This document shows, one piece after another, positions 3-7,351 of a stretch of 64,000 nucleotides of DNA. Source of the stretch: Candidatus Bathyarchaeota archaeon (lineage in GTDB: Archaea; Thermoproteota; Bathyarchaeia; Bathyarchaeales; Bathycorpusculaceae); NCBI GenBank assembly GCA_963767735.1, contig CAVYES010000008.1:160001-224000 (forward strand). The letters run 5' to 3'. Made by a program: the position numbers and the translations under genes. A model generated the notes under the pieces. That model was given only the letters and a program-made list of their open reading frames with translations. It was not told the origin of the DNA and ran no database searches. Position 1 is the first letter of the stretch. Each line of letters opens with the position of its first letter.

Positions 3-1613
3 ATGAACATGGAAGAACAAACAGGACAATTCCTAAAAGCACCAGCCATATGCCAAGCTCCTGACTGCGGAAGAGATGGACCATTCGAGTTTGTCCAAGA
101 AGAATCAACCTTTATAGATTCCCAAGATCTTCGGCTGCAGGAAAAGCCTGAAGATTTACCTCCAGGACAATTACCACGTACATTAGCCGTGAAACTTGTC
201 GGCGACGACATAGTTGATGTTGCAAGACCAGGAGACCACATTGCCATAGTCGGAATCGTCCGCGCTTTTGCGCCTTCACTGATGGGAATGGGAAAACTCC
301 GAACATTCATCCTTCAACTTGACGCTAACTCAGTAGAAGTGCTCGGAAAAGAGCCAGAAACATCACCGCCCACACCTGAAGAAGAAGAAAAAATGCATGC
401 ACTCGCAAAAGACCCATGGGTGCACAGGAAAATCATGAGTTCAATAGCTCCATCAATCTTCGGCTACGAGCACATCAAAGAAGCAATAATGTACTTGCTC
501 TTCGGCGGAGTCTCCAAAAGCCTGCCAGACATAAACATAAGAGGAGAAATGAACGCTCTTTTAATCGGAGATCCTGGCACCGCAAAATCACAACTTCTCC
601 AGTACGTAGCCAGAATAGCGCCAAGAGGACTATACACTTCAGGAAGAGGAACAACCGCCGCAGGCTTAACCGCTGCAGTAGTAAGAGAAAAAGGCGGAAG
701 CATGAGCCTGGAAGCAGGCGCACTCGTGCTAGCCGACAAAGGAATTGCATGCATCGACGAAATGGACAAAATGCGTCCAGAAGACCGAGTTGCCATTCAC
801 GAAGCGATGGAGCAGCATACGGTTTCAGTTGCAAAAGGCGGAATTGTCGCCACACTAAACGCCAGAACAGCAGTGCTAGCAGCGGCCAACCCGTCTTTAG
901 GCAGGTATGAACCAAACAGAACGGTTGCCGAAAACGTTCCGCTGCCAGTAACTATTCTTTCGCGTTTTGACTTAATTTTCGTGCTGCGAGATGTGCCCAA
1001 CAAGGAAGCAGATGGAAAAATGTCTCAGCACATCTTAGAAATTCATCGTAGAGGAGTAAGCCCTGTAGAAGCACCGGTAGATGCGGAATTGCTGCGGAAA
1101 TACGTTAGCTATGCTAAAGGGATTAAGCCTGTACTTGGTACTGAAGCATTAAAGCGGCTAAGCGACTTTTACTTAGCCATGCGCGCGGCAAGCGAAACTG
1201 AAGGTTCACCAGTGGCAATAACCGCACGCCAGTTGGAATCGCTTGTTCGTATCTCAGAAGCCAGGGCACGCGTTGCATTACGAAAGGAAGTGACAGGTGA
1301 AGATGCAGAGGCAGCTATAGTCATTATGAAGAGGTCTCTGGAAGAAGTGGGAATCGACTTGTCCTCATACAAAGTGGATATTGACTTGATAATGACTGGA
1401 AGATCCAAAAGCATCCGGGACAGATTGCATGTTATCCTTTCAGTGCTGATGGACATGGAGAAAGTAACAGGCATAGTTGAGAAAGACGCACTTGTCAACG
1501 AACTGGAAACAAAGCATAAGATACCCAGAGCCGAAGTTGAACGCATGATAAGCCAATTGCTGCGTGAAGGAACAATTTATGAACCCAGAGAAGGATGCCT
1601 AAAGAAAACCTAA
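3..1613 (+). CDS. mcm: MCM replicative helicase (5' part lies outside the window)
   Basis: Walker A GDPGTAKSQLL, Walker B IDEMDKM, Arg finger SRFD, ITARQLESL, C-terminal winged helix; no intein in the visible part. Confidence 0.97.
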   Translation: MNMEEQTGQFLKAPAICQAPDCGRDGPFEFVQEESTFIDSQDLRLQEKPEDLPPGQLPRTLAVKLVGDDIVDVARPGDHIAIVGIVRAFAPSLMGMGKLRTFILQLDANSVEVLGKEPETSPPTPEEEEKMHALAKDPWVHRKIMSSIAPSIFGYEHIKEAIMYLLFGGVSKSLPDINIRGEMNALLIGDPGTAKSQLLQYVARIAPRGLYTSGRGTTAAGLTAAVVREKGGSMSLEAGALVLADKGIACIDEMDKMRPEDRVAIHEAMEQHTVSVAKGGIVATLNARTAVLAAANPSLGRYEPNRTVAENVPLPVTILSRFDLIFVLRDVPNKEADGKMSQHILEIHRRGVSPVEAPVDAELLRKYVSYAKGIKPVLGTEALKRLSDFYLAMRAASETEGSPVAITARQLESLVRISEARARVALRKEVTGEDAEAAIVIMKRSLEEVGIDLSSYKVDIDLIMTGRSKSIRDRLHVILSVLMDMEKVTGIVEKDALVNELETKHKIPRAEVERMISQLLREGTIYEPREGCLKKT

Positions 1614-1631: not shown

Positions 1632-2721
1632 ATGAAGCCAGTAGTAGTTGTTGCTGGAACCAGACCTGAAATAATCAAGATGGCTCCAATAATCAGAGCC
1701 TTAAACAAAACCAAAATTCCATCAGTATTTGTCCATTGCGGCCAACACTACGACTACAATATGGCTCAGCAATTCATTGAAAACCTCGAGTTGCCAACAC
1801 CTGACTACTCCTTTAAAATTGAAGCTTCTTCGCCTGGAACGCAAACAGCAGAAATAATGATGAAGATGGATCAGTTGCTGGAGAAAATTGAGTCTTCAAT
1901 TGTTTTGGTTGAAGGTGACACGAACAGCGTTTTGGCAGCAGCTTTAGCAGCTAATAAACGAGTGATTCCTGTTGGGCATGTGGAAGCAGGTTTGAGAAGT
2001 TTTGACCTGCGCATGCCTGAAGAACATAACCGGCGTTTAACCGACCACATATCAGAATACTTGTTCACACCAACAGAAAGAGCAAAAGCAAATCTCTTGA
2101 AAGAAAATGTTTGGGGCAAAATTTACCTGACAGGGAACACAGCTATAGACGCGGTAATCCAGCATTTGCCTATTGCCGAAAAAAAATCATCCATAATGGA
2201 AAAAATTCCCTTTTGAAACGTTCGCTTTAGCAACGGCTCACAGGGCAGAAAATGTTGATAACGTTTCAGTTCTTGAGTCCTTTATGAATGTTTTCTCAAA
2301 ATCCCCAATTCCAATCGTTTATCCGATGCATCCACGCACAAAAAAGAGACTTCAAGAAAATAAGATGCTTGCTCAAATAGAAGCATTGAAGAACATGTTG
2401 ATTCTTCCGCCTTTGGGATACTTGGACTTTTTGATTTTAATGAAAAACTGCAAATTGATAATTACTGATTCAGGCGGTATTCAAGAGGAAGCCACTGCCC
2501 CGGGCATAAGGAAACCAGTGCTGGTGATGCGTTTATCGACTGAGAGGCAGGAAGCAGTGGAAGCAGGATTCGCCAAAGTAGTTGGAACAGACAGGAAAAA
2601 TATTTTGGCAGCTATGCAAGAAGCAGTTAAAAATGAAGTTGAGTTGCCCTATGCTTCACCTTTCGGCGACGGCACAGCAGCCCAGAAAATCGTTGAAATA
2701 TTGAAGAAAAGTTTTGCTTAA
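1632..2721 (+). CDS. wecB: UDP-N-acetylglucosamine 2-epimerase, split by a frameshift near 2210 (ORFs 1632-2216 and 2284-2721)
   Basis: GTRPEIIK, GQHYD, HVEAGLRS, PEEHNR in the first ORF; TDSGGIQEEA and ERQE in the second; frameshift at a CCC/TTTT run. Confidence 0.9.
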
Positions 2722-3491
2722 GAGATGTAAGTGGTTTTTTTATCTTCTTCTTTACGTGTTTGTTCAGCTTGCAAGGCTCGTTTTTCTTCAATTTGCTGCA
2801 GGCGAGTCACCATTGTTTCTGCACGGGCAATTTCCTCGTTTAATCCTGTCAGGTCTAAGTCGAAGTTGAAAGTCGATTTTAAAACTTCCAAAACGCTTTT
2901 TGCCGCAAGAGGATCAGGCAGATAACCGCGTGTTTCACCCAGCAGGCAGAGAGCATTTATTTTTTTGAATTTTGCTAAGCCAAGTATTAATCCTGCTGTT
3001 CCAACAATTGGGCTTCCTGAAGTGCTAAGCGTTGCGCCTGCTTGCAGTGCTTTGTCTAAGATATCCTGTGAAGTTGCAGCTATGAAGACTTTAGGTTTTT
3101 CTTTCGGCTCCATTCGGTAACCGCCGATTGTTGCGATTGTTTTAACTTTGTACTTTTCTGAGAAGTCAAGCATTCTGTCAGCGATTTCGTATTGCCCTTC
3201 GATTGTTTGCGATTGGCTATCGCCGGTAAATAGGATTAGATCGTTTGGTCCGTTTGGATTTTGGTAGTAGTAGAATGCGCCTCTTAAAAGGCGAACGTTG
3301 CCTTTTTTGTTGACGAGGACAAAATATGGGAAATGAGGAGAGTAGAGATAGGCAATTTTTTTGGCTTTTAACTGTTTGATCATGTAGCGAAGAGCGATTT
3401 TACCGACAAGCCCTAAACCTGGAAGACCTTCGATGAGAACAGGATTGTTCGGTTCAATTTGGATGAATTCTTTGATGTATGTTTCTTTCAT
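2718..3491 (-). CDS. PAC2-family proteasome assembly chaperone
   Basis: EGLPGLGLVGK, TIGGY, CLLGET, PDPLAA; usual position after nop10. Confidence 0.9.
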   Translation of the reverse strand: MKETYIKEFIQIEPNNPVLIEGLPGLGLVGKIALRYMIKQLKAKKIAYLYSPHFPYFVLVNKKGNVRLLRGAFYYYQNPNGPNDLILFTGDSQSQTIEGQYEIADRMLDFSEKYKVKTIATIGGYRMEPKEKPKVFIAATSQDILDKALQAGATLSTSGSPIVGTAGLILGLAKFKKINALCLLGETRGYLPDPLAAKSVLEVLKSTFNFDLDLTGLNEEIARAETMVTRLQQIEEKRALQAEQTRKEEDKKTTYIS

Positions 3492-3658
3492 TATTTTGTG
3501 CTGCTCCTTTTCATTGCCATTCGGTATTTTAGGTATTTATCATCAGGCGAGAATTTGGGAGGATGCGGAATTCTGACAGGCCCACCACAGTAAGGGCAAC
3601 TTGTTTTGTTTAGTGTATATTTTTCGCAGTTTACGCATTTGCGTAATTGCCAAACCAA
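3491..3658 (-). CDS. nop10: H/ACA RNP protein Nop10 (55 aa, not in the ORF track)
   Basis: Manual translation MVWQLRKCVNCEKYTLNKTSCPYCGGPVRIPHPPKFSPDDKYLKYRMAMKRSSTK; Zn knuckle and HPPKFSPDDKY motif. Confidence 0.95.
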   Translation of the reverse strand: MVWQLRKCVNCEKYTLNKTSCPYCGGPVRIPHPPKFSPDDKYLKYRMAMKRSSTK

Positions 3659-3763
3659 CTATTTTTCCCTTCTAAAAGCATAAGCGCCATGCGCCGTAAC
3701 GGTTTCAAAGGTGGCGATTAAAAGGTCGCCGCAGGTGGAACATTCGGGCTTACGCTCAGCCAT
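3659..3763 (-). pseudogene. Internally deleted aIF2-alpha remnant (34-aa mini ORF)
   Basis: MAERKPECSTCGDLLIATFETVTAHGAYAFRREK: resembles the S1-domain start of aIF2a (P-x-x-G-D-L-x-I-A-T...GAY) joined to a FRREK C-terminus; occupies the aIF2a slot between S27e and Nop10. Confidence 0.75.
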
Positions 3764-3778
3764 TCATTACTTCATCCC

Positions 3779-3975
3779 TTATTCAAGAACCGCTTGTACT
3801 TCGCCTTTAATTTTTGCTCTTCCGCCAGATGGTTCAGCTAATGTTTCTCCGCATACATTGCAGGTTATCTTGTTGACACGTTGCTGAAGACTAATTGTTC
3901 ATTGCCGCATTTTGGGCATTTAACTCTAAGGAAGACGCTTTTTGGCTTTGGGATAAGTTTGCTCCATTCAGACAT
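3779..3975 (-). CDS. rps27e: 30S ribosomal protein S27e (one base missing near 3868)
   Basis: [32 protein letters not shown] then, after a frame change, [32 protein letters not shown]; 197 nt instead of 198. Confidence 0.92.
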
Positions 3976-3993: not shown

Positions 3994-4278
3994 TTATTGT
4001 ATTTCTAGTTTTCTGAGGCGAATCCCGTCTTTATGCCTCATGTAATTGCAAACTTTGCATTTTAAACGCAGAGTTTGTTTTTTCGTTGTTTTCGCGAATT
4101 CTCTTTGAAGCGGATATTTTTGTCCACCATAACCATGCTTTTCTCTTTCGTGGTGACGTTCGCCATGAGCTAAGGCTCTGCGCTTTCCAGGCTTATAGAG
4201 AGTTACACTGTGAATTTGATGAATTTTACATTTCGGACAGTAGGTTTTAACTTCTTTAGGAACGTGCACCTTATTCAC
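3994..4278 (-). CDS. rpl44e: 50S ribosomal protein L44e (eL42)
   Basis: TYCPKCKIH, GYGGQKYP, AKTTKK, LKCKVC. Confidence 0.96.
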   Translation of the reverse strand: MNKVHVPKEVKTYCPKCKIHQIHSVTLYKPGKRRALAHGERHHEREKHGYGGQKYPLQREFAKTTKKQTLRLKCKVCNYMRHKDGIRLRKLEIQ

Positions 4279-4543: not shown

Positions 4544-5611
4544 ATGCAAATTCTTTCAAAACTTAAAGAGAACTCGGATATCATAATTAAGCTGTTGCCA
4601 TTGTTTGCTTTCGTCGTTCCGCTGGCTCTGCTATATGGGCTGAACCCAGCCGATCCGTATCTTAATCTTAGTCCTCAAAATTCTTTCCAGTTAATGTGGA
4701 AGGGCAGAACCTTCGAGCTGTTTTTTATTTGGTTAATAGCGTTGGAGTTTATTCTCAACTGGGAAATCTTCAAGTCAAAAATAATCAAACAAAACAAAGC
4801 AAAGCTCGCCGCCGTTGCAATATCCTTGTCACTTCCTACAATATTTGTAATTTCTGAGTATTATTTCGGGTTAAACGGCGCAATTGCCAACTTATCACTG
4901 CAAAACGGCGTTGCTTTTTACGATTCGATGCCTCTCGCAATTGAATACCTTGTTTTCGCGGTTCTTTTCTGCTTAACTATTTTTCTGTCTTTTGGGAAAA
5001 AGGGTTTAGCAGGTTTTGCTTTACCCGCTTTGTTTGTCGCTTTAGTCGGCGTTCTGTATACTATTGATAACGTGTTTCCTAACGGGGGGTTTACTCCATT
5101 CCAAATGTTTGTTCCAACAACCGCCACGCTTGCTGCTCGAGTCTTAAACTTCATGGGATGCACAACGTCGATGGTAATGCAAAATGGCATGCCTACCCTT
5201 CAAGCTACGGGACCTTTAGGAACAGCCAAATTCGCTATAGCTTGGCCTTGTGCAGGTATCGAAAGCTTTCTTATTTACACAGCTGTTGTTTTGGTGTTTT
5301 TGCAGCAGATACCAATCTCTTGGAAAGCTAAAACGGGATACTTTATCGTTGGCGCTACTGTCACATATTTCATAAATGTTATGCGGATAGTCACCATCTT
5401 CACTATCGGCATGCAGTATGGCGTAAACTCAAACCAAGTGCAAACGTTCCACTTCTACTACGGTCCACTATACGCGATAGCATGGATTGTTTCTTATCCA
5501 TTAATCATTCTTGTAAGCCAAGGTTTATGGCGAAAAATTAAAAGAGGAAAATCAAGCGCTAACCAAGGAACCCCTATGAAACCGCAACCACCACAGCCAA
5601 GCCCTGTTTAA
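4544..5611 (+). CDS. Archaeosortase/exosortase-family membrane protease
   Basis: Multi-pass membrane protein with catalytic Cys in AWPCAGIES, Arg in NVMRI, His in FHFYYG. Confidence 0.8.
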   Translation: MQILSKLKENSDIIIKLLPLFAFVVPLALLYGLNPADPYLNLSPQNSFQLMWKGRTFELFFIWLIALEFILNWEIFKSKIIKQNKAKLAAVAISLSLPTIFVISEYYFGLNGAIANLSLQNGVAFYDSMPLAIEYLVFAVLFCLTIFLSFGKKGLAGFALPALFVALVGVLYTIDNVFPNGGFTPFQMFVPTTATLAARVLNFMGCTTSMVMQNGMPTLQATGPLGTAKFAIAWPCAGIESFLIYTAVVLVFLQQIPISWKAKTGYFIVGATVTYFINVMRIVTIFTIGMQYGVNSNQVQTFHFYYGPLYAIAWIVSYPLIILVSQGLWRKIKRGKSSANQGTPMKPQPPQPSPV

Positions 5612-6125
5612 CCAGCATCTTTGCATTATCGACAGGCAAAGAAGCAACATCCTCAGCCTTAAATGGCCCGTAAGTTTTCATGTCTAAACCAATAATGGCT
5701 GGAGTGTTTTTTGCAAATCTTAAAGTCAATCGTTTATGACTAACCACTTCATCTTCAGCTTTAACAGTTTGCCCTTGCATTAGATCTTTAGCGAATTTTT
5801 GGTATGCGCAAGCAAAAGTGACAAAACTTTCACACATCTTGGCTTCTTCAACAGTTAACAACTCTGAGGGCAACTGTGGGTTTTGCGTTATTGTTTTTAC
5901 TAATTTTTTGTATCTTGCCCGAAGCAGCTCATCCAGCATCCGGGTTACGTTCTGCGCTTCACAATCCAGCAGGTCTAATTTAACTGATTTTTTGTCAAGC
6001 ATCTTGCTCTCTTCGCAGATAAGCCTCAGGTAATCTGCTATTCTAGAGTAGAAGTCAGGCGGTAAACCTCCAAGAGAAGCCTCTTCAATTTCTCTTCGCC
6101 ATGCCACGTAAAGTTCATTGTACAT
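5574..6125 (-). CDS. GINS complex subunit (GINS15-like)
   Basis: Helical A domain (LPPDFY..IADYL, R..K) plus C-terminal B domain GLDMKTYGPFKAEDVASLP; adjacent to priS. Confidence 0.88.
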   Translation of the reverse strand: MYNELYVAWRREIEEASLGGLPPDFYSRIADYLRLICEESKMLDKKSVKLDLLDCEAQNVTRMLDELLRARYKKLVKTITQNPQLPSELLTVEEAKMCESFVTFACAYQKFAKDLMQGQTVKAEDEVVSHKRLTLRFAKNTPAIIGLDMKTYGPFKAEDVASLPVDNAKMLVKQGLAVVVAVS

Positions 6126-7351
6126 TAGTTCGCCACCTTAGCCCTTCCCTTACAGATAAGCATAACTGCCGCCGCAACAGGCAACTCTTTAGTCTCATTC
6201 TTGTATGGACCCAACGTTTCCCCGCCCAACTTAAACTCCGGAGCATCAGAGACCATCACTTTTACCTCGCCCTTTTTAAAAGCTACCGCTTCAGTGAACG
6301 GATCAAAATCCTGCAGGTTTTCAGCCGGAAACTCGACTTTTTTTAAGCCTGTTTTGCCATGCAAAGTGCCGTTCATCCTGATTAAACGGTGAATATCAGT
6401 TGTGACAACCGTATCAATCTTTGACGATTGCAAATCTCTCACATGCTCAGCCAGTTTTAACCAGGTTTGAACGCTGACTCCGTTAATGCTGTCCCATCGA
6501 CCGTCATTTATACAACGTTTAATGATGGCTTCCTTGTTTTTAAAAAGTGCATTATTCTTTAAACCAACCTCTTTCAAATCTTCCGAGGTTGCGTTGACGA
6601 GAAAATTTTGCATTCCTAATTTTAGTCGCTTGTTCCAGCCAAAGTTGTGTAGATTAAATTTTTTAGTTGCGCGTTTTCCCCGTTTTTCTTTCACGTCTTT
6701 ATCTAGTACAGTTAAGCCTAATCCGGTAACGTAATCAACAATTTCCTTCCGCGCCATGGAGTCTAATGAACGCACCGATTCATTCTCTACATGCACGTGA
6801 TATCCTCGATGACCGGAAAAAAACACATGCAACTCATCTAAAGAAAAACCCAAATCATCACTTAACATGTCAATCAGCTTGGCGGCTTCTTGTCGAGCGG
6901 AATCTATGCAAAGCTCGCAGGCCCAGGTTTTTGTTTCAAATTTTGTTGCTTCGCAGGCTGGGCAGATCTCGGGAGTTATTCCTCTACCGCTGAAGCCGCA
7001 TTTGGTGCAGGTGAATTCATCGTGGATTTTGTTGCAGGATGTCGGAATGTGATCGGCGTCTATGTCGAAGACTAAGTCAGCGCCTATCCAACCTTTTTTG
7101 TCCATGTCAAAATCTGGGTTTTCATAGTAAGCGCAAGAATGATAAACATCTGATGGAACAGTCTGGTTCAGCACTGCCCTCAGGTTGCTAATTTTTTCAA
7201 ACCTCTTGTGCCTAACCATAAACCGTTCCTTGAAGAGCAGATAGCCAAATTCTCTTTGGCTGAGAAGAATCGGGGCAGGAATAATGGTTGTAGGGTCTCG
7301 GTAGTATTCGCAGAATTTTTGATAAACGAAGTCTCGAGAAGCCTCATCCAT
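6125..7351 (-). CDS. priS: DNA primase catalytic subunit
   Basis: REFG, ADLVFDIDAD, FSGHRGYH, IDTVVTTDIHRLIR, TLHGKTG. Confidence 0.96.
   Translation of the reverse strand: MDEASRDFVYQKFCEYYRDPTTIIPAPILLSQREFGYLLFKERFMVRHKRFEKISNLRAVLNQTVPSDVYHSCAYYENPDFDMDKKGWIGADLVFDIDADHIPTSCNKIHDEFTCTKCGFSGRGITPEICPACEATKFETKTWACELCIDSARQEAAKLIDMLSDDLGFSLDELHVFFSGHRGYHVHVENESVRSLDSMARKEIVDYVTGLGLTVLDKDVKEKRGKRATKKFNLHNFGWNKRLKLGMQNFLVNATSEDLKEVGLKNNALFKNKEAIIKRCINDGRWDSINGVSVQTWLKLAEHVRDLQSSKIDTVVTTDIHRLIRMNGTLHGKTGLKKVEFPAENLQDFDPFTEAVAFKKGEVKVMVSDAPEFKLGGETLGPYKNETKELPVAAAVMLICKGRAKVAN

Follow-up and report, generated by a model that had tools for sequence, protein, structure and literature searches.

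The 34-codon open reading frame found between rps27e and nop10 in the window (the whole 64,000-nucleotide stretch of Candidatus Bathyarchaeota DNA that was analyzed) is, by its sequence, a real leftover of an aIF2-alpha gene. Comparison across 120 genomes of the genus suggests that this operon copy of the gene (hereafter A) was replaced by a paralog at another locus (B), and that the stump of A has probably been kept for termination-reinitiation coupling to nop10. We infer the translation of the stump, and the dependence of nop10 yield upon it, from what was observed, namely the homology of the stump, the presence of the paralog, the distribution of the two copies and the conservation of start codon, frame and stop position.

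The interval between rps27e and nop10

The genes of the cluster lie on the minus strand. The first gene of the LSIN cluster (L44E-S27E-aIF-2alpha-Nop10), rpl44e, is a 94-aa ORF at 3994..4278 (Pfam Ribosomal_L44, 91.3 bits), and it is followed by rps27e at 3779..3975, which falls into two frames (pieces 3865-3975 and 3785-3886) through one missing base near 3877. A 15-nt spacer at 3764..3778 leads from the rps27e stop to the ATG of the stump. Codons 1-29 of the stump (3677..3763) correspond to the former N-terminus of copy A, the start of its S1 domain, and codons 30-34 with the TAG stop (FRREK*, 3659..3676) correspond to its former C-terminal end; the complete ORF occupies 3659..3763 and encodes 34 amino acids (MAERKPECSTCGDLLIATFETVTAHGAYAFRREK), with the TAG at 3659-3661. 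The TTG start of nop10 (3491..3658; 55 aa; Pfam Nop10p, 83.3 bits) adjoins this TAG at 3658 with a gap of 0 nt, and the distance from the rps27e stop (3779-3781) to the nop10 start is exactly 120 nt. The close-packed chain of genes goes on downstream, where the ATG of a PAC2-family gene (2718..3491; Pfam PAC2, 150.6 bits) overlaps the nop10 stop by 1 nt. There is a single copy of nop10 in the genome. An earlier note on this DNA, made from the sequence alone, had described a 34-codon frame between rps27e and nop10 whose stop abuts the nop10 TTG, and its description agrees with the ORF, the interval and the Pfam-confirmed neighbors given here.

The spacer contains the stretch GGGATGA, which is 80-90% conserved after the S27e stop in the 66 genomes of the genus that have a short interval, and which is likely the ribosome-binding stretch of the former aIF2-alpha gene. 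The energy of its anti-Shine-Dalgarno (anti-SD) duplex is only -5.2 kcal/mol.

Homology of the stump to aIF2-alpha

Residues 1-29 of the stump share 16 of 29 identities with the full-length aIF2-alpha of the same genome (pairwise E 1e-08) and 62-69% identity with the in-operon aIF2-alpha of species of the same genus, and 79% with the stump of a close relative (G004). In DNA alignments, the first 87 nt of the stump fall on the start of full-length operon genes (G003, G045 and G077), and the last 18 nt (TTTAGAAGGGAAAAATAG) fall on the last 5 codons and the stop codon in the full-length operon genes of sister species (..GGQGTFRREK*). The two parts are separated by an in-frame deletion of about 690 nt, which has removed 229 of about 263 codons. 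The protein matches and the DNA alignment with sister species thus bear out the earlier proposal of an in-frame N- and C-terminal aIF2-alpha remnant inside the L44e-S27e-aIF2a-Nop10 cluster. With respect to the aIF2-alpha/eIF2-alpha family (PF00575 and PF07541), the stump derives from the family and keeps 29 + 5 of its approximately 263 residues; these are the only residues that align with aIF2-alpha, and a Pfam search of the 34-aa sequence gave no family at E<=0.01. The 34-codon stump cannot act as an initiation factor.

The N-terminus of the stump had been described as diverged, with a CSTC motif, and this is real: relatives read W-P-E-A at the same place. The motif (window 3722-3742, minus strand) is the product of a local burst of changes, a cluster of approximately 7 substitutions in 12 nt when the closest relatives are taken as reference (TGGCCAGAAGCC in G018).

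A full-length aIF2-alpha at an unlinked locus

The assembly comprises 3.04 Mb in 10 contigs and is 94.9% complete. Searched in full with the PF07541 profile, it gave one match over the cut-off, copy B, at positions 238019-238810 of contig C5 of the genome that contains the window (G000). Copy B is an intact frame of 263 aa without stops and is a regular member of the family, with both PF07541 (86.7 bits) and PF00575 (45.8 bits) over the cut-off. Searches for the other two subunits each gave one match over the cut-off, aIF2-beta (PF01873) at C2:115218-115553 with 128.1 bits and aIF2-gamma (PF09173) at C5:42668-42925, in a 420-aa open frame, with 105.1 bits; both of these genes are single and intact. 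The job of aIF2-alpha is done by full-length copy B at its unlinked locus. The earlier note had called for this genome-wide search of the three subunits and had offered two outcomes, either that the lineage had lost a near-universal initiation factor subunit or that the gene had moved and left a relocation scar. The first is contradicted by the presence of alpha, beta and gamma. The second was right that an intact copy exists elsewhere and wrong that the same gene moved, as 27 of 120 genus genomes keep both A and B intact and a paralog has replaced A.

The relationship of the two copies was analyzed in a tree of 52 A proteins, 48 B (C5-type) proteins and 9 outgroup proteins with SH-aLRT support. 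In this tree B forms a clade (99) that is sister to the A clade of the genus (83), and A and B together are separated from the other families of the order with a support of 99. After 18 sequences from further genera of the family had been added, B was still a clade (99), which now included two genomes of genus g21 with the same gene context, and it grouped weakly (87 SH-aLRT) with the operon copies of genera g21 and g23. By these trees, B may be the product either of duplication or of transfer between sister genera. B may be a distinct, faster-diverged aIF2-alpha lineage that is perhaps no mere duplicate in function.

Open frames of 379-383 aa at the B locus had raised the candidate of a fusion of B to its downstream gene. 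This was rejected: all 48 of the 48 extracted B proteins measure 255-270 aa without stops, and the longer frames are due to open sequence upstream of the B start. An ORF of 112 aa, with no Pfam match, is located 9 nt after B (G000:C5:238819-239157; L001:1941-2279). It stands beside B in 30/30 loci of the nearer B clade and in 0/18 of the deeper B clade, for which the flanks extended over only 500 nt, and it may be a B-specific partner, as judged by this distribution.

Copies A and B across the genus

In a survey of the genus, nop10 was located in 120/120 genomes and the S27e-nop10 interval was fetched for all of them. The interval is of full length (795-812 nt) in 54/120 genomes and short (59-300 nt) in 66/120, so that the comparison with sister genomes, also proposed in the earlier note, places stumps in more than the window's own genome. 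Among the 54 full-length intervals, A is intact in 52, with a frame of 255 aa or more, and the other 2 have a pseudogene, with 7 stops in G086 (C1:666998-667780) and 1 stop in G088 (C13:102801-103583). B is present in both of these genomes, and their pseudogenes look like the first stage of decay, prior to deletions. The 52 genomes with intact A consist of 27 that also have B and 25 that have A only. Full-length B was found in 61 of the 68 genomes without intact A; it was not found in the other 7 (G011, G085, G089, G093, G020, G073 and G130), all of which are 52-88% complete. Loss of A is thus confined to genomes in which B was found or which are incomplete. At least one full-length aIF2-alpha copy is present in all 73 high-quality genomes of the genus. 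In the other families of the order, aIF2-alpha is of full length in the operon and occurs as a single copy per genome.

Recurrent erosion of the operon copy

On a tree of the flanking genes (approximately 985 columns), the change from full-length to short interval takes 11 steps, at least 7 of which are forced by well-supported branches, and the length of the stump changes 40 times. The genome of the window belongs to a clade of 10 species (support 99) that all have short intervals, with stump lengths of 44, 45, 105, 138, 162, 216 and 217 nt. The closest relatives of the window's genome (G004, G018, G078 and G130) carry the 216/217-nt form, and removal of 111-112 nt (KLDEY..GGQGT) from this form yields the form of the window.

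The 105-nt stump (34 codons and a stop) occurs in 12 genus genomes besides that of the window, and other sizes occur in 53 more. The 105-nt stumps are distributed over three species groups: G000 itself; G013, G115, G111, G104 and G048; and G011, G085, G103, G114, G125, G118 and G092. The G013 group, which stands elsewhere on both trees, has the same junction as the window (..AYA|FRRE..), and the third group has another junction. The junction common to the window and the G013 group has apparently arisen by convergence, as far as the two trees indicate; the sharing suggests either recurrence at a microhomology of 2 nt (CT), or a preferred length, or interspecies recombination. In some parts of the flanking-gene tree, longer stumps branch off within sets of shorter ones that have one and the same junction, for example the 57-nt class relative to the 105-nt class of G011. 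Because deletions cannot be undone, either this tree, which is based on 1 kb, is wrong at these places or stump alleles are moving by homologous recombination.

Start codon, frame and stop position of the stumps

The stumps of the 66 genomes range from approximately 14 to 94 codons in 31 distinct lengths, and nearly all of the frames start with MAERKPEWPEAGDL.. and finish with ..GGQGSFRREK*. The start of each stump was anchored by a motif at the ancestral start, by which 64/66 stumps could be aligned, and the ATG is kept in 59 of these 64. When read from the ancestral start, 53/66 stumps end no more than 2 nt from the nop10 start. The others comprise 7 stumps that end at -12/-13 (with the TAG inside TTTTAGAAGG), 1 that ends at -5, 3 that enter nop10 by 28 nt and the 2 that are unalignable. 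Full-length A genes show the same stop positions relative to nop10 (0, +1 and -1), and hence the arrangement in which the stop lies next to nop10 is ancestral. The distance from the ATG to nop10 takes 31 values between 44 and 285 nt, and 24 of the 31 give an end next to nop10 (binomial against 1/3: 6e-7, for lineages that are not fully independent). Five of the 7 out-of-register values are within 1-2 nt of the value of an in-register sister (44/45, 55/57, 211/213, 217/216 and 284/285).

In the 64 alignable stumps (2154 codons, without the last 18 nt), frame 0 contains 0 stops, compared with 114 and 219 in the two alternative frames, a contrast that is partly a legacy of the former coding sequence. 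Point variants were compared within four length classes that cover 24/66 genomes, using intact members only, and the 131 distinct variants comprised 98 non-synonymous, 33 synonymous and 0 nonsense changes, versus 5.7 nonsense changes expected (Poisson 0.003, with classes that are not phylogenetically independent). The omega-like ratio of the stumps is 0.83, and stumps of equal length share as little as 47% identity, compared with approximately 90% for the flanking proteins. By these comparisons the peptide of the stump drifts freely and its frame does not. The most conserved stretch of the interval is formed by the last 18 nt (TTTTAGAAGGGAAAAATAA), which are 80-99% conserved in the 66 short-interval genomes.

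The best surviving alternative to the coupling proposal is that the stump is a neutral relic, or simply what deletions have yet to remove, with an open frame and ends that are inherited and meaningless. The near-neutral evolution of the peptide, the wide variation in length with shrinking that continues, and the partial legacy in the open-frame contrast are all in agreement with such a relic, as are the two genomes that tolerate a stop-containing A. A further point in its favor is that 13/66 stumps are out of register, a count that is blurred in both directions by the many relatives that look like long-read metagenome-assembled genomes with 1-nt errors. Random deletion is expected to leave the old stop in frame in approximately one third of cases, and this is far from the proportions found both by genomes and by lengths. 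The lack of nonsense changes, the retention of the ATG, and the small offset of most out-of-register cases from an in-register sister also run against an unselected relic, which we consider unlikely.

Initiation at nop10 and the coupling proposal

The start codon of nop10 is TTG in most genomes of the genus. The 22 nt upstream of nop10 pair with the 3′ end of the genome's own 16S rRNA (..GGATCACCTCCT) with an energy of -4.1 kcal/mol, and 45% of random 22-mers from the genome pair as strongly; the corresponding anti-SD duplexes of S27e and PAC2 have energies of -6.4 and -6.3 kcal/mol. Two candidate signals were rejected. The duplex energy does not support a strong nop10 Shine-Dalgarno sequence inside the conserved AGAAGGG, and no structured RNA is indicated in the interval, for which window 3620-3790 (minus strand) folds with -43.2 kcal/mol versus a shuffle mean of -43.1 (z = -0.02). 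Because nop10 has a weak TTG start and anti-SD pairing no better than random, the stump can be read as a relay ORF.

In the available part of PMC10666635, termination-reinitiation in Haloferax volcanii and E. coli drops by 40-80% when the distance is increased to +14 nt and is nearly abolished at approximately 20-38 nt; for coupling, no more of the upstream gene is needed than its last 15 nt. At 0 nt in the window, the co-directional pair of stump and nop10 lies within the range of coupled pairs (overlap, or about -8 to +10 nt). The distance rule of PMC10666635, as far as its available text defines it, predicts a preferred stop at 0, rarer stops at -13 (7 vs 53), rare read-over (3) and invariant last 18 nt.

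The proposed course of events is as follows. An ancestor in this group of Bathyarchaeia would have gained a second aIF2-alpha, copy B, at another locus beside operon copy A. Where B took over, A would no longer have been needed as a protein, and internal deletions would have removed it piecewise. The deletions would have spared the ribosome-binding stretch and the ATG, 29 codons of the N-terminus and 5 of the C-terminus, and the stop in contact with the nop10 TTG. This stump would then have been kept as a relay ORF, in which ribosomes start at the old aIF2-alpha start, translate a meaningless peptide, terminate at the TAG and at once re-initiate on nop10. The earlier note had proposed an in-frame deletion that keeps translational coupling to nop10; the in-frame deletion is confirmed, and the comparative data back the coupling, which is deduced from comparison.

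The main observation against coupling is that the 13 out-of-register stumps do not end at nop10. Some cases that are off by 1 nt may be assembly errors, and in G113 and G022, two odd cases, S27e is broken too. The out-of-register stumps, together with the stop-containing A genes of G086 and G088, imply that expression of nop10 is possible, for some time at least, when ribosomes are not relayed from the old aIF2-alpha start; any dependence of nop10 on the stump is therefore partial and quantitative. The conserved last 18 nt could also serve nop10 initiation in a way other than reinitiation. One contig from an RNA library extends from nop10 into a longer-type stump, and this is weak evidence for co-transcription of stump and nop10, as DNA can be present in such libraries.

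Polarity occurs in archaeal operons, and translation of the stump might matter without reinitiation, either because it protects the polycistronic RNA from polar termination or decay or because it stops ribosomes from blocking the nop10 start. The third frame, which carries ribosomes 28 nt into nop10, is indeed the rarest outcome (3/64 alignable stumps). However, if avoidance of read-over were all that counted, an end at -13 would be as good as an end at 0, which is at odds with 7 versus 53 genomes; for polarity, 60-300 nt is a short untranslated gap, and the interval has no stable RNA structure that would need opening. Such a role is therefore distinctly improbable.

If the stump encoded a functional micro-protein, such as a piece of the S1 fold, this would account for the retention of an intact ORF from ATG to stop in many species. 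Such a micro-protein is very unlikely in view of the omega-like ratio and the low identity of same-length stumps relative to their flanks, the range of lengths with differing junctions, and the lack of a Pfam match.

Assembly quality

The rps27e gene in the window is the only S27e gene of the genome, and it is frameshifted by the missing base near 3877 (3865-3886), a break that the earlier note does not mention. Near-identical contigs of 3 public runs, one of which is an RNA library, have an extra base behind 3877 that restores ..VFSNVVNKITC.., and S27e is intact in 116/120 genomes of the genus; the frameshift is probably an assembly consensus error. The UDP-N-acetylglucosamine 2-epimerase gene (wecB; Pfam Epimerase_2) at 1632-2721 on the plus strand is also split, into frames of 194 and 145 aa with a break near 2205-2216. 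The break, a shift of 1 nt, lies next to runs of A6, C3 and T4 and is either a second sign of homopolymer errors or a real pseudogene. With respect to the stump junction, no public run contained more than 0.30 of the sampled words; the contigs obtained came from near relatives, and none of them spans 3679-3740 in the form of the window, a gap in coverage that is no evidence either way.

It is hardly credible that approximately 690 nt were collapsed out of the contig, or that the full-length copy on C5 comes from another organism: the two frameshifts within 2.3 kb do point to an imperfect consensus, and the exact 34-codon form is spanned by no public contig, but 1-nt consensus errors do not delete 690 nt in frame, the 105-nt architecture and other stump sizes recur in the genomes counted above, at this place contigs of other runs exceed the form of the window by 111 nt in one version and fall 39 nt short of it in another, and B is present in 59/66 stump-bearing genomes. 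Contamination of the bin by B is unlikely, as the contigs that carry B, in those 59 genomes and in 29/54 others, reach megabase size. The earlier judgment in favor of real decay over assembly collapse is upheld by the stumps in 66/120 independently assembled genus genomes and by the longer and shorter versions in contigs of other runs.

Discussion

The gene order and strand in the window are those of the LSIN cluster (Berthon et al. 2008, PMC2643942), according to the available part of that paper. Unlike the cluster as described there, the "I" of the window consists of 34 codons and the working aIF2-alpha is unlinked, a break that is common to 66/120 species of the genus. The same source places PCNA-PriS-Gins15 next to LSIN in a replication-translation supercluster. 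The cluster in the window is flanked by an MCM-like ORF (3-1613, plus strand), a 183-aa ORF (5574-6125, minus strand) and a 408-aa primase-like ORF (6125-7351, minus strand). Their identities were assigned by eye, and by eye they are as expected for the supercluster of PMC2643942; the ORFs at 5574-7351 sit where the available text puts PriS and Gins15, a match of position only. In terms of membership, L, S and N are present in order on one strand, and the slot of I holds the 34-codon remnant, which belongs to the cluster only historically.

Upstream or leader ORFs exist whose translation matters rather than their peptide, and in-frame, non-polar deletions are a laboratory practice. The stump is like both in that its sequence can drift under a constraint on start, frame and stop position. 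It is unlike both leader ORFs and engineered deletions in that it comes from natural, repeated in-frame erosion of a paralog of an essential gene.

With the known termination-reinitiation pairs (Huber et al., PMC6728339; PMC10666635, as described in the available text), the pair of stump and nop10 shares its co-directional arrangement, a stop and start that touch (0 nt), a weak downstream start and a conserved stretch of the last 15-18 nt. The pairs differ in that the upstream partner here is a shrinking gene remnant without a product and in that the coupling here is deduced from sequences. Coupling by termination-reinitiation is thus already known (PMC6728339, PMC10666635), and an eroding remnant of a replaced gene as the upstream partner was not found in our search of the literature, which drew on some sources available only in part. 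That search, which covered a limited collection with supplements excluded, gave no paper on Bathyarchaeia aIF2-alpha paralogs or on remnants kept for translational coupling, and in the review PMC12548453 there are 0 occurrences of "remnant", "pseudogene" and "vestig".

The genus offers a natural experiment in which a highly conserved archaeal cluster is broken in over half of the genomes. The decay of a dead gene would show which features of an operon are selected apart from its proteins, namely a start codon, an open frame and a stop that touches the next start, and it lends comparative support, in archaea not yet cultured, to the distance rule for coupling that was measured in Haloferax and E. 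coli. For annotation, it is a warning that tiny "hypothetical" ORFs in ribosomal operons may function as translated spacers. As aIF2-alpha serves as a marker gene and this genus has two paralogs of it, phylogenies and completeness estimates that rely on markers can be disturbed.

On balance, the comparative data incline us toward a picture in which this genus of soil and peat Bathyarchaeia has whittled down a redundant aIF2-alpha independently many times (at least 7-11 truncations and approximately 40 changes of length among 120 species), with only the start, the frame and the stop being selected. The stump would then be an evolved relay ORF and the synthesis of Nop10 would depend on termination-reinitiation, and copy B, to which the task of aIF2-alpha has passed, would perhaps be no mere functional duplicate of the gene that it replaced.
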